Source: Oligoflexales bacterium (GTDB lineage Bacteria > Bdellovibrionota_B > Oligoflexia > Oligoflexales > CAIYRB01). From it: a stretch of DNA of 64,000 bases. A program made the position numbers and the translations under genes. Positions 54,879 to 58,808 of the stretch are shown here, piece after piece. The stretch is taken from positions 6,863 through 70,862 of the forward strand of contig JBGSUI010000126.1 in assembly GCA_041736175.1 (NCBI GenBank), given 5' to 3'. The notes under the pieces were generated by a model that did no database searches, was not told the DNA's origin, and saw only the letters and a program-made list of their open reading frames with translations. Numbering within the stretch: the stretch's first letter is position 1; each line of letters begins with the position of its first letter.

Positions 54879-55571
54879 ATGACCGCCTCTGATCTCTATA
54901 TTAAGCAAATTCCCGTAGGTCCGATGCAAAATTTCGCCTATCTGATCGGCAGCCAGTCTCGGGGCGAATGTTTTGCCGTTGATCCTGCCTGGGAGCCCCA
55001 GAAGGTGATCGATGAAGCGGCCAATGACCAGATGAAAATCAAGGGTCTTTTGGTCACCCACTATCATCAAGACCATTGTGGCGGGAGTTATGGTGGCCAC
55101 CAGATCCCTGGTGTTGCCGAACTTCACGCCACCCTTGGCGTTAAGGTCTATGCCAACACCCATGAAGTCGACGGGATCATCAAAGTGACGGGTTTAGCGA
55201 AAAACGACTTTCATATCTGCCACGGAGGGGATGTGCTGGACGTGGGGGGGATTAACCTAAAGCTTATTCACACTCCAGGGCACACACCTGGAAGCCAGTG
55301 TCTGCTTTGTGAGAGTCGGCTGATTTCTGGAGATACGCTCTTTATTTCGGGGTGTGGCCGGGTGGATCTACCCGGTGGAAACGGACCGCAGCTCTATGAG
55401 AGTCTGAGAAAGATATCGACCCTTCCCGGTGATACAGAAGTCTTGCCAGGTCACCATTATGATCCCCAGGCTACGGCGTCCCTTGATTATATCAAAAAGG
55501 TGAATCCCTACCTCCGGGAAGCGACTGTCGAGGGCTTTCGCTCCCTAAGGGAAAAACCACGGGAAACCTAA
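54879..55571 (+). CDS. MBL-fold hydrolase (glyoxalase II-like)
   Basis: THYHQDHCGG, HTPGHTPGS, SGDTLF..GCGRVDLPGG, PGHHY. Confidence 0.9.
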   Translation: MTASDLYIKQIPVGPMQNFAYLIGSQSRGECFAVDPAWEPQKVIDEAANDQMKIKGLLVTHYHQDHCGGSYGGHQIPGVAELHATLGVKVYANTHEVDGIIKVTGLAKNDFHICHGGDVLDVGGINLKLIHTPGHTPGSQCLLCESRLISGDTLFISGCGRVDLPGGNGPQLYESLRKISTLPGDTEVLPGHHYDPQATASLDYIKKVNPYLREATVEGFRSLREKPRET

Positions 55572-55651: not shown

Positions 55652-57286
55652 ATGGGTTATGCCAAAAGGTTTTGGAGTGGGTGGGTTTTCTGGGGCCTTC
55701 TAGGCATGTTGAGTTTGATCTTTTTAGGCGAGACTAGGTCCGAAGGGTCAGGGCTTAACCTAGCCCGAAAAAGCGTGTTTAAAATCAATGTGAATACCAG
55801 TATCCCCAGCTTTACCGAGCCATGGCGTCGCCAGCCCGACGGCGGTGGGTCTGGGACCGGATTCTATATCGGGCAAAACCGTATTTTGACCAATGCCCAC
55901 GTGGTGGCCCATGGATCCTATATTACGGTGCTTAGGGATGGGGACTCACGGCCGGTACCTTCCGTCGTCACGTTTATTGCCCATGACTGCGACCTAGCGA
56001 TCTTAGAGCCCAGGGATCCGGAGTTTTTCCGCGACGTTCGTGAGATGGAGTTTGGGAGTGTACCTCGACTCCAGTCGCCTGTGGTCACAGTAGGGTTTCC
56101 CACGGGAGGAGAACAGCTATCCATCACCCAGGGAGTGGTCTCAAGGATCAGTTTTCGTCGCTATGTCCATGACGGTGTGTCAGATCACTTGCTCATCCAG
56201 GTGGATTCTGCCATCAATCCAGGAAACAGCGGGGGCCCGGTCCTCCAAGGCGGTGTTGTGGTAGGGGTCGCCTTCCAAGCTTACACTCAAGCCGAAAATA
56301 CAGGGTATATCATCCCGACTCCAGTGATCCAAAGATTTTTAAAGGATATCGAGGATGGAGTCTATGACGGACATCCTGTTGATGGCATCACGATTATGGA
56401 AAATGCAATGGAAAACGCTGCCAATGCAGCGTTTTTAGGCCTAAACAAAGGGGATGGGGGGGTTAAGATTTCCCATGTGGCCCGTTGGGCGCCTAGTTTT
56501 GGGATTTTACAACCAGGCGATGTGCTCCTTGAGATCGACCAACAACCGATCGGCGTGGATGGAAAGGTCACCTTCCAGGGTGAGAGAGTTAGTTTTCGGG
56601 TACCCTATGATCTTAAACAGGTCGGTGGTGCAGTCGAGTTTAGGATCAATAGGGATGGGGTGTTTAAAAAGGTTGTGGTCAGTCTTACTAAACGTCCGAG
56701 ATTTCCCGAACAAGGATTTGTTTTTGCACGGCATCCAAAATATTTTGTATACGGTGGTTTGGTTTTTACCCAGCTCAATAGGAGCTTTCTGAAAAACTGG
56801 GGGGAAAAGTGGTATTCAGAGGCTCCCCTAAACCTTCGTTTCATAACGTTTAACTGGCCGTTTCTTAGGGATACCGAAAATGCACAGGATATTTTGGTCC
56901 TCGCAAAACTCCTGCCCGATCAGATAAACACTTACTCTAGGTCCAATGTAGACGGAATCGTCCTGAGCGTCGATAAAAAGCCGGTACGATCGATCGAGGA
57001 TTTGGTAGAGCTTTTAGAAAAAGGTGAGAGTGAATTTGCAGTGATCGATTTTCTCGGCAGTGACGACCCAACCGTGATCTCCAGGTCCGAAGTCAAACTG
57101 AGAGGACCTTTGATCAACAAAAAATATGGTGTTGTTCCGGATCGCTGGCTCTTTGGACCTGAAATCGATGGAACCAGGGACACCAGCTCTTCTGAAATGG
57201 GCCCCAACAACAAAATCACTAAGGACACGATCTCTAAGGACACGATTCACCCCAGTCAACCGCAAGGGGGCAAAGATGGGATTTAA
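55652..57286 (+). CDS. Deg/HtrA-type serine protease with PDZ domains (plant Deg2-like architecture), active
   Basis: LTNAHVV, HDCDLA, AINPGNSGGP triad; YFVYGGLVFTQL second PDZ. Confidence 0.92.
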   Translation: MGYAKRFWSGWVFWGLLGMLSLIFLGETRSEGSGLNLARKSVFKINVNTSIPSFTEPWRRQPDGGGSGTGFYIGQNRILTNAHVVAHGSYITVLRDGDSRPVPSVVTFIAHDCDLAILEPRDPEFFRDVREMEFGSVPRLQSPVVTVGFPTGGEQLSITQGVVSRISFRRYVHDGVSDHLLIQVDSAINPGNSGGPVLQGGVVVGVAFQAYTQAENTGYIIPTPVIQRFLKDIEDGVYDGHPVDGITIMENAMENAANAAFLGLNKGDGGVKISHVARWAPSFGILQPGDVLLEIDQQPIGVDGKVTFQGERVSFRVPYDLKQVGGAVEFRINRDGVFKKVVVSLTKRPRFPEQGFVFARHPKYFVYGGLVFTQLNRSFLKNWGEKWYSEAPLNLRFITFNWPFLRDTENAQDILVLAKLLPDQINTYSRSNVDGIVLSVDKKPVRSIEDLVELLEKGESEFAVIDFLGSDDPTVISRSEVKLRGPLINKKYGVVPDRWLFGPEIDGTRDTSSSEMGPNNKITKDTISKDTIHPSQPQGGKDGI

Positions 57287-58808
57287 CCGACATCGAGCTT
57301 TGAGGACTTGTATGGGGTTCGCCCTGTGGCTTGTCCTGTTTTATAGACCCCAAACTTGCTTTGCCGCCTCGCCTGAGGAGCAGTTTGTAAAACTCTTTGT
57401 CAGTAAGGCTGAGATCGATCGGAGTTCTCCCTGGCAGCTTGAGGAAGTCTCCCAACAAGCCTCCCTCGGGGTTGTGGTCGCAGGAGGAAAGATCCTAACG
57501 ACGGCCCTGACGATAGCGAATGGGACCCTGATCGAAATGCAGGTTTTTGGCGCCAACCAACGCCATGAAGTCGAAGTCGAGTTTGCGGATTTTGAAGTTA
57601 ACCTTGCCCTCTTAAGGCCCAAGGATCCTACCGTTGCCCTTAAGGGCCTCTTGCCGGTTGTGTTGGGGGAGGACCTTGAGATCGATGACCAAGTGGAGAT
57701 CTTTCGTCCCCGTGATCTGTATCAGCTAACCAAAATGTCTGGTAGTTTTCAGGAAGTGGGTATCTACACTGCGGTGACGAGCTATTATGGCCTCGTGGCC
57801 TATCTTTTCAAGGTTCAGCAGACAGGTCTAGGTTGGGCCGAGCCGATTATGAAAAAAGGTCAGCTTGTTGCCCTAGCATCTGGCCAGGATACCCAATTTG
57901 TCCATGGTATACCAAGCGACGTCATCAAACACTTTTTAAGTGACCATCCTGGTGGCGCTTACCGGGGATTTCCCTCAATCGGGTTGCAACTAGCTCCGCT
58001 AATTGATCCTAATTTAAGAAAACTTCTCAAGGCAGACAATGTTGGCAATGGGATTCGTATCTCCAAAGTATTTCCATCGAGTCCTTTTGTTGGGCGCGTT
58101 GACCAGAACGACGTGCTCCTGGAGATTGATGGTTTTCCGATCAGCGAGCATGGGTATTTTCAGCACCCTAAATGGGGTAAAGTTTACTTAAAGCATCTTG
58201 TCACCAGGAAATTTGCGGGAGACAGCATGCGGTTAAAAATCCAAAGGGCGGGACAACCCTTAGAGGTCGAAGCGGTCCTGAATCGATTTATTTCTAATGA
58301 TTTTCCAGTGGTCGGTTACCGGACGAAGCAGCAGGAACCACACTTGATCTTTGGAGGACTTCTCTTTCAGGAGTTATCCCAGGATTTCTTAAAACAATGG
58401 GGCAAAAACTGGCGTTCTTACGCCCCTACCGATCTCGTCTATGCCATAGAAAACCAAAACGAGCCGGAAAAGATCCCAGGACGGAGGATTATCTTTTTAT
58501 CTAAAGTATTACCTGACCAGTTTAACCGCGGGTACGAAAAGCTTAAGTATCATATTGTAGAATCCATTAACGACCGCCCGGTGACCTCTATCCAAGGGGT
58601 CCGTGATGCCCTGCGATTCCCGACTTTTTCTAATGGACAACAATTTGCCAGGATCAAGCTTATCCTAGAAGGGGGTGAAATCATCCTCTCATATAACAAA
58701 CTCCAGACGGCCCATCAGAGGATCGCCAGAACCTATGCGGTCACCTCCAAAGACTCTTTTTTTGATCCTCAAGAGGCCACAAGGCCCGTAACCGAGCCTA
58801 ACAAATAA
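57276..58808 (+). CDS. Deg2-like paralogue lacking the catalytic triad
   Basis: LTTALTI, EVNLA, TGLGWAEP at triad positions; HLIFGGLLFQEL PDZ; ATG overlaps the upstream gene end by 11 nt. Confidence 0.85.
   Translation: MGFNRHRALRTCMGFALWLVLFYRPQTCFAASPEEQFVKLFVSKAEIDRSSPWQLEEVSQQASLGVVVAGGKILTTALTIANGTLIEMQVFGANQRHEVEVEFADFEVNLALLRPKDPTVALKGLLPVVLGEDLEIDDQVEIFRPRDLYQLTKMSGSFQEVGIYTAVTSYYGLVAYLFKVQQTGLGWAEPIMKKGQLVALASGQDTQFVHGIPSDVIKHFLSDHPGGAYRGFPSIGLQLAPLIDPNLRKLLKADNVGNGIRISKVFPSSPFVGRVDQNDVLLEIDGFPISEHGYFQHPKWGKVYLKHLVTRKFAGDSMRLKIQRAGQPLEVEAVLNRFISNDFPVVGYRTKQQEPHLIFGGLLFQELSQDFLKQWGKNWRSYAPTDLVYAIENQNEPEKIPGRRIIFLSKVLPDQFNRGYEKLKYHIVESINDRPVTSIQGVRDALRFPTFSNGQQFARIKLILEGGEIILSYNKLQTAHQRIARTYAVTSKDSFFDPQEATRPVTEPNK

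Follow-up and report, generated by a model that had tools for sequence, protein, structure and literature searches.

What does a full-length HtrA-type protein do once it has lost all three residues of the catalytic triad, when its gene stands directly behind that of an active paralogue? This question is raised by a locus in a 64,000-nucleotide stretch of the genome of an Oligoflexales bacterium (contig JBGSUI010000126.1, positions 6,863 to 70,862 of the forward strand; hereafter the window, in whose coordinates all positions are given), where gene 1 (P0001) encodes an active protease of the plant Deg2/Deg9 type and gene 2 (P0003) a catalytically dead paralogue. The reading that we favor, by a modest degree, is that gene 2 is a selectively maintained pseudoprotease that forms a two-gene periplasmic module with gene 1 and joins it in a mixed Deg2-type cage. 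The parts of this reading differ in strength: gene 2 is almost certainly a functional, noncatalytic protein, its functional coupling to gene 1 is quite probable, and the chances of a physical hetero-oligomer of the two proteins are evenly balanced.

Gene 1 and gene 2 are separate open reading frames (ORFs) in different frames. The features of gene 1 and of the gene junction are the following:

55652-57286, forward strand: gene 1, active Deg2/Deg9-type HtrA serine protease of 544 amino acids (ORF, Pfam, and PDB match)
55769-56347, forward strand: protease domain of gene 1 (alignment to 4fln)
55823-55825, forward strand: codon of loop-LA Trp58, equivalent to Trp134 of Deg2 (alignment to 4fln; numbering from PMC3481350)
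55898-55900, 55991-55993, and 56228-56230, forward strand: catalytic codons of gene 1, His83, Asp114, and Ser193 (profile alignment)
56348-56695, forward strand: PDZ1 of gene 1 (weak Pfam PDZ_2 match; aligned to Deg2 PDZ1)
56696-57151, forward strand: Deg2-type PDZ2 of gene 1 (PF17815) with the internal-ligand strand KYFVYGG (Pfam PDZ_3; 4fln alignment)
56738-56740, forward strand: codon of Tyr363, equivalent to Tyr440 of Deg2 (4fln alignment; PMC3481350)
57266-57286, forward strand: gene junction, with a GGGGG Shine-Dalgarno-like run (57266-57270), an ATG (57276), and the TAA stop of gene 1 (57284-57286), read from the sequence

The triad of gene 1 was read from the profile alignment as His83 (TNAHVV), Asp114 (CDLA), and Ser193 (GNSGGP). 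Pfam matched Trypsin_2 (4e-22), Trypsin, and PDZ_3 (PF17815; 2.5e-22, residues 359-495), with a weak PDZ_2 match between the trypsin and PDZ_3 matches (residues 266-343), while NCBIfam gave only matches below threshold, as a Do/HtrA relative. The top PDB match of gene 1 is Deg2 (4fln; E 5e-73, residues 41-518), and its hydrophobic N-terminus is a putative signal or anchor. The last ~44 amino acids of the protein (57152-57283) form a low-complexity tail that the other members of alignment A1 lack and that carries a small direct repeat (KDTISKDTI; aaggacacgat occurs twice at 57221-57246).

The features of gene 2 are as follows:

57276-58808 (or from 57312), forward strand: gene 2, dead Deg2-type paralogue (pseudoprotease) of 510 amino acids when counted from 57276
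Residues 1-30, forward strand: predicted Sec signal peptide of gene 2, cleaved between CFA and A (sequence-based)
57378-57950, forward strand: degenerate protease domain of gene 2 (alignments A1 and A2, family tally)
57432-57434, forward strand: codon of the loop-LA Trp53, which is kept (alignment to 4fln)
57507-57509, 57600-57602, and 57834-57836, forward strand: former triad codons, now Leu78, Asn109, and Trp187 (alignments, triad read-out)
57951-58295, forward strand: PDZ1 of gene 2 with the conserved YRGFPSIG loop (Pfam PDZ_2; alignment A2)
58296-58760, forward strand: Deg2-type PDZ2 of gene 2 (PF17815) with the internal-ligand strand EPHLIFGG (Pfam PDZ_3; 4fln alignment)
58341-58343, forward strand: codon of His356, at the position of Deg2 Tyr440 (alignment to 4fln)

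At the triad positions gene 2 has Leu78 (TTALTI), Asn109 (VNLA), and Trp187 (GLGWAEP), as read in alignments A1 and A2 and in the triad read-out; no trypsin hidden Markov model (HMM) of Pfam matched it, and no NCBIfam model reached its cut-off. Pfam recognized PDZ_2 at residues 235-332, where Y229, G231, F232, and G236 of the PDZ1 loop are invariant in alignment A2, and PDZ_3 (PF17815; 8.9e-23) at residues 354-494. BLASTP aligned the two proteins over their full length (25% identity in 522 columns, E 7e-32), a similarity that we judge to be far above chance. Since gene 2 lacks the triad that defines MEROPS family S1C, we class it, on its residues, as a nonpeptidase homologue of the HtrA/DegP family (MEROPS S1C) and not as a protease. 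Signal peptides are predicted on both proteins from a basic and then hydrophobic N-terminal stretch, with the CFA site, and from the N-terminal helix of an AlphaFold2 (AF2) model.

If gene 2 starts at its candidate ATG 57276, it overlaps the stop of gene 1 by 11 nucleotides, whereas the alternative ATG 57312 (Met13), which is the public gene call P0004, leaves a spacer of 25 nucleotides; an earlier note on this DNA had called the genes overlapping, which holds for the first start and fails for the second, and only the size of the overlap needs correction. A start at 57126, which yields the longest ORF, was rejected, as the extension has no counterpart in orthologues.

Both proteins are built like plant Deg2. 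This subfamily is marked by an atypical PDZ2, an internal-ligand strand (beta21) with Tyr440, and Trp134 in loop LA (PMC3481350); Trp134 stacks on Tyr440 and so locks the hexameric cage, and once the hexamer has formed, PDZ2 and loop LA keep the protease at rest (PMC3481350). The best PDB sequence matches of both window proteins, which run the whole way from protease domain through PDZ2, are Deg2 (4fln) and Deg9 (5il9), and canonical structures of the DegP/DegQ/HtrA1 type scored at least 50 orders of magnitude worse. Against the Deg2/Deg9 structures, gene 2 alone scored 7e-31, and a profile built from its family scored 2.5e-65. Both proteins score above the cut-off for the atypical PDZ2 (PF17815) with extra C-terminal helices, and the protease domain of gene 2, despite the absent trypsin HMM match, aligns to gene 1 and to Deg2/Deg9, which gives it the architecture of the family. 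With Deg2 residues numbered as the 4fln chain index plus 68 (chain residue 66 being Trp134 in the HMMER alignments), Trp134 has its equivalents in Trp58 of gene 1 and Trp53 of gene 2, each part of a PW motif shared without exception by the 30 sequences of alignment A1. At the Tyr440 position gene 1 has Tyr363, whereas gene 2 has His356. Both proteins conserve the beta21 strand and its GG turn, and the pseudoproteases of Verrucomicrobiota keep the Tyr; across the pseudoprotease family EPHLIFGG is the best-conserved motif of alignment A2.

The AF2 model of gene 2, made from a 21-sequence alignment, reached a predicted local distance difference test score (pLDDT) of 89 and a predicted template modeling score (pTM) of 0.82, and includes a C-terminal helix at residues 476-486. 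In Foldseek its template modeling (TM) scores were 0.81/0.89 to Deg9 and 0.79-0.89 over Deg9 and Deg2, with a root-mean-square deviation of ~3-4 Å over ~470 columns. Because the model superposes on Deg9 and Deg2, the dead paralogue is predicted to keep the entire fold. The earlier note had described two paralogues of one protease-PDZ-PDZ layout, the first with His, Asp, and Ser in place and the second without any of the three yet still full length, both with a second PDZ domain of the plant Deg2/Deg9 type. All of this is borne out by the residues read at the triad positions, by the whole-chain alignment of gene 2 to gene 1, by the end-to-end matches of both proteins to 4fln and 5il9, and by PF17815 in both.

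Selection on gene 2 is as strong as on its active partner. The ratio of nonsynonymous to synonymous substitution rates (dN/dS; Nei-Gojobori) lay at 0.077-0.125 for gene 2 and at 0.089-0.112 for gene 1 in all of the pairs compared, which were those without saturation of dS; between the window and its closest relative (80% amino acid identity) dS was saturated, at a dN of 0.15. The two closest relatives (80% and 73% amino acid identity) have the same tandem. The earlier note had named decay of the second gene as the result that would speak against it; with a dN/dS of ~0.1 and a pair conserved across phyla, gene 2 is not decaying. When identity was taken per domain, the active partner within Oligoflexales showed 68% in the protease domain against 46-51% in the PDZ domains, while all three domains of the pseudoprotease were alike at 43-47%. 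This pattern indicates that the pseudoprotease domain, though free of the extra catalytic constraint, has remained necessary.

Gene 2 shares between 84% and ~27% identity with its homologues, which are ~480-550 amino acids long and have no trypsin Pfam match in any case. Among 144 further representatives of the family, the Asp position is Asn in 103 and the Ser position is aromatic in 85 (58 Trp, 17 Phe, and 10 Tyr), while the His position is variable, with D, E, Q, Y, A, S, and F among its residues. The family has conserved motifs of its own, VQQTGLGW[AS]EP and EPHLIFGG. A search of 1.84 billion protein representatives returned 1373 clusters (50% identity) that match the profile at E <= 1e-30, a count that covers active and dead Deg2-like members together and shows the family to be a large one in bacteria. 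In the deeper Oligoflexales, the pseudoproteases of loci L021, L023, and L024 have Ser/Asn/Lys at the triad positions and a CKSDP loop in place of GLGWAEP, and that of L019 has Phe/Asn/Trp. The branches that lead to both groups are very long (1.2-1.5 substitutions per site), which suggests that the dead site was remodelled further in these lineages.

The two genes also travel together. Matches were found in 23 genomes among 41 relatives, nearly all as two genes side by side with the active one upstream. A locus search with P0003 alone returned no loci, and a pattern scan with alignment A2, over one genome per species, gave more than 545 confirmed loci. The triad was read in all HtrA-like ORFs of 92 loci: an active gene (His/Asp/Ser) followed by a pseudoprotease gene on the same strand occurs in Oligoflexales, in Chthoniobacterales/Verrucomicrobiae, in Desulfatitalea, and in one metagenome-assembled genome (MAG) labelled Granulicella. 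In the phylum of the window, 49 of 104 genomes were positive, all in the window's order, and 55 had neither gene; both genes were present in 48 of the 49, the lone exception lying at a contig end. No third gene was conserved across phyla, the clustering of flanking ORFs giving only clade-specific synteny and antisense-ORF artefacts, and the module is therefore one of two genes.

In Verrucomicrobiales (Luteolibacter, Akkermansiaceae) the pseudoprotease gene has no active neighbor (loci L026-L034, L038, L049, L056-L062, L071, L074, L077, L078, L083, L084, L090, and L092). The unlinked subclade holds 24 pseudoproteases on a long branch, with E/Q-N-F/Y at the triad positions. Four of these genomes were checked, and each has exactly one strong gene 1 orthologue, on another contig (E ~1e-92 to 1e-99). 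In one Oligoflexales MAG (L012, 2819-4283, and L018, 2439-3999) the pseudoprotease is intact and the gene of its active partner is broken into two overlapping ORFs, by what looks like a frameshift between its protease and its PDZ portion.

In a tree of 134 sequences, actives and pseudoproteases form two clades with a support of 100 each and mirrored topologies; a single active gene seems to depart from this, owing to an alignment gap at its His column. Patristic distances in the two clades are correlated at r = 0.99, the pseudoprotease evolving ~1.6 times faster. In an extended tree, to which plant Deg2/Deg9 (sequences copied from the alignments) and other triad-bearing representatives were added, the pseudoproteases were again monophyletic (100), and the partnered actives formed a clade of their own (98), apart from plant Deg2/Deg9 and from a bacterial Deg2-like protease that stands alone. 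P0070 and P0072 fell inside the partnered-active clade, and a downstream pseudoprotease partner was found for both; the P0066-P0068 clade fell outside it, and P0067, the one member checked, has no adjacent pseudoprotease partner. The pseudoprotease clade, plant Deg2/Deg9, and the stand-alone bacterial homologues meet in a basal polytomy that includes a long branch. The simplest reading of these trees would be a single ancient duplication with a single loss of catalytic function, the pair being inherited thereafter, and the spread of the pair over several phyla suggests that its history included horizontal transfer.

How could a dead subunit serve an active one? We propose that both proteins, which have signal-like N-termini, are exported, and that they would build a common cage of the Deg2 type, in which either the trimers themselves are mixed or a trimer of the active protein is capped by one of the dead protein. 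The YRGFPSIG loop of the pseudoprotease, which aligns with the start of PDZ1 in Deg2/Deg9, is taken as a peptide-binding loop, and the large aromatic side chain found in place of Ser probably occupies what was the catalytic cleft. The pseudoprotease would thus supply PDZ1 peptide binding and closure of the cage through PDZ2 and loop LA, with no cleavage, and because of this division of labor it may gate, tune, or target the activity of its partner. A bolder form of the proposal, in which the cage is obligately hetero-oligomeric (a dead trimer closing an active one, or mixed trimers), the pseudoprotease senses ligands and gates the protease, and the pair is a widespread multi-phylum class and the unfused bacterial counterpart, possibly the forerunner, of DEG7/Nma111, is possible and to our mind somewhat doubtful. 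The earlier note had proposed an obligate hetero-oligomeric protease or chaperone cage with an inert regulatory or substrate-selecting subunit; the part of this that finds support is a subunit that is inert but functional and coupled to the protease, as argued by the dN/dS of ~0.1, the cross-phylum pair, the 48 of 49 genomes with both genes, and its retention where the genes are unlinked.

Several points weaken the case for a mixed cage. The only co-fold, a single chain of 1025 amino acids with a five-row alignment (A4), was of low confidence (pLDDT 60, pTM 0.38) and too poor to judge contact. Its chain was built from relatives that have both genes in frame with only stop codons between them (L066, L044, L051, L059, and L079), the stops being read as residues; a deeper alignment with unpaired rows (A3) was discarded, MAFFT having placed pseudoprotease rows onto the active half. 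No fused (Rosetta-stone) form occurs among the 150 best representatives, which are 267-554 amino acids long with none near 1000. Mirrored trees and co-occurrence are expected for any operon-linked genes and show joint retention, not contact. In the pseudoproteases of Oligoflexales a His replaces the internal-ligand Tyr, and given this exchange the Deg2-type lock may differ in mechanism. Lastly, gene 2 is frameshifted in one relative (G013:C5:57998-59300; 345 and 132 amino acids in different frames) with gene 1 intact, which is either a true recent inactivation or an error of the MAG assembly and is the sole case among the 49 positive genomes.

Known systems show what an inactive partner can do, the nearest analogues of the pair being DEG7/Nma111 and MamE/MamO. 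DEG7 of Arabidopsis and Nma111p of yeast likewise have an active unit followed by a triad-less duplicate, in the same N-to-C order as the 5'-to-3' order here, but as one polypeptide of ~1100 amino acids with active and degenerate protease domains and four PDZ domains, whereas the window pair is two genes. The Nma111-type PDZ_1 Pfam domain was matched in neither window protein. MamE and MamO of magnetotactic bacteria are, like our pair, an HtrA-family protease and a paralogous pseudoprotease with a degenerate site, but they belong to a magnetosome gene cluster, whereas the window pair is Deg2-type with unrelated neighbors (hypothetical proteins and a hydrolase of the MBL fold). MamO also carries a membrane domain, which is TauE-like. 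The NCBIfam MamE model scored 53.8 bits on the window pair against a cut-off of 800, which leaves the pair outside that family. Because the degenerate protease domain of DEG7 mediates oligomerization (PMC3194040), and because the noncatalytic role of MamO, which has a di-His metal site, includes the activation of MamE (PMC4794232), both kinds of role for a pseudoprotease toward an active partner, oligomerization and activation, occur in the superfamily. The mixed rings of ClpP and ClpR, in which some subunits are inactive (PMC3194040), are a further likeness, though their fold is unrelated to HtrA. The Deg5-Deg8 hetero-hexamer of the thylakoid lumen is also a proteolytic oligomer of paralogous subunits. 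Deg5 and Deg8 both retain the triad, and Deg5 has no PDZ domain. With plant Deg2/Deg9 (4fln, 5il9) both window proteins share, along their entire length, the protease fold, PDZ1, and the Deg2-type PDZ2, and also the loop-LA Trp and the beta21 strand. Deg2 and Deg9 are, however, homo-oligomers with catalytic activity that reside in organelles or the nucleus of eukaryotes, hexameric in the Deg2 cage and octameric in Deg9, whereas the window pair is bacterial, predicted to be exported, and paired, with one member that lacks the triad and has His at the position of Tyr440.

The main rival explanation is that gene 2 acts on its own in the periplasm as a holdase or chaperone, which would form a homo-oligomeric Deg2-type cage of its own and be coexpressed with gene 1 for shared envelope quality control without any mixed complex, much as a protease-dead DegP keeps its chaperone activity. 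We consider this unlikely, though it deserves the most attention of the rivals. Gene 2 holds every element of a Deg2 protomer (the fold, the PDZ1 loop, PDZ2, the loop-LA Trp, and the internal-ligand strand) and could self-assemble, as the degenerate domain of DEG7 does (PMC3194040); Deg2 itself has chaperone-like activity (PMC3481350); and the two genes are unlinked in Verrucomicrobiales. A lone chaperone, however, should sometimes be found without the protease, and co-occurrence in the window's phylum is near-strict (both genes in 48 of the 49 positive genomes, neither in 55), with the partnered actives forming a dedicated subclade (98). The Trp, Phe, or Tyr at the Ser position may, moreover, fill the very cleft in which HtrA chaperones hold client strands.

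It is less probable still, and on balance improbable, that gene 2 serves specifically to restrain gene 1, as an inhibitor or anti-protease decoy that would share the PDZ ligands of gene 1 or cap the active trimer and keep the protease resting until a signal arrives. The resting lock of the Deg2 hexamer works through PDZ2 and loop LA, elements that both proteins keep, and the position of gene 2 directly downstream, with a possible stop/start overlap, would favor balanced expression. Inhibition is nevertheless a sub-case of the hetero-oligomer model, indistinguishable from activation in the present data, and MamO, the one characterized bacterial HtrA pseudoprotease partner, activates rather than inhibits (PMC4794232). 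That gene 2 might be a hydrolase with a noncanonical nucleophile or base is very improbable: in some Verrucomicrobiota members a Ser does precede the canonical position by one residue (motifs DNSY, SSF, GSF), and the loop alignment could be off by one residue, but the window loop GLGWAEP has no Ser, the His position is Leu here and highly variable in the family, the Asp position is mostly Asn, and no alternative triad is conserved. Weakest of all is a decaying duplicate, a functionless pseudogene in the making, which the loss of all three catalytic residues, the ~1.6-fold faster rate of gene 2 relative to gene 1, and the frameshifted copy in G013 might suggest, but which is refuted by the dN/dS of 0.08-0.13, full-length open frames in dozens of genomes of several phyla, the family-specific motifs and confident AF2 model, and a single ancient clade (support of 100) that implies long retention.

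With a maintained pseudoprotease paired with gene 1 as the favored reading, the surroundings of the pair can be described briefly. A scan for promoters and terminators gave matches no commoner than in shuffled sequence. Directly upstream, at 54879-55571, lies a gene for a metallo-beta-lactamase (MBL)-fold (Lactamase_B-like) hydrolase, and the other neighbors in the window are hypothetical proteins. A gene of the same MBL family is found upstream in a relative (L094/L095), with a methyltransferase between, but is missing from L093 and from other phyla, so that we read its presence as local synteny and place it outside the module. The whole genome (G000) has 41 Trypsin_2 matches, unusually many, which include two canonical HtrA genes (on contigs C68 and C47). 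Such a large trypsin-like set fits the predatory or protein-scavenging lifestyle typical of Bdellovibrionota, and because the genome also has the two canonical HtrA genes, the pair is an accessory system and not the housekeeping DegP/DegQ.

The earlier note had called the arrangement not well characterised in HtrA biology. This is fair for separate bacterial genes and too broad otherwise, with precedents in the fused DEG7/Nma111 (PMC3194040) and in MamO/MamE (PMC4794232). Our search of the literature on HtrA pseudoproteases and inactive paralogues found DEG7 and MamO and no description of a bacterial Deg2-type protease/pseudoprotease pair, and the public names of these proteins are generic ("S1-C serine protease", "PDZ domain-containing protein", "hypothetical"). 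Pseudoenzyme partners of HtrA proteases are thus already known, and what is new is a widespread, separately encoded, multi-phylum module; the evidence points to an undescribed two-subunit periplasmic protease/chaperone system. In the textbook view HtrA proteins are homo-oligomers, with pseudoenzyme subunits only in special cases such as the fused DEG7/Nma111 and MamO. Here a dead Deg2-type subunit is kept with one dedicated active partner among Bdellovibrionota, Verrucomicrobiota, and Thermodesulfobacteriota MAGs, with one further MAG that carries an Acidobacteriota label. If the two proteins do co-assemble, the pair would be a natural system in which to study how inactive subunits gate or target a self-compartmentalizing protease, and a prokaryotic model of the DEG7/Nma111 architecture.

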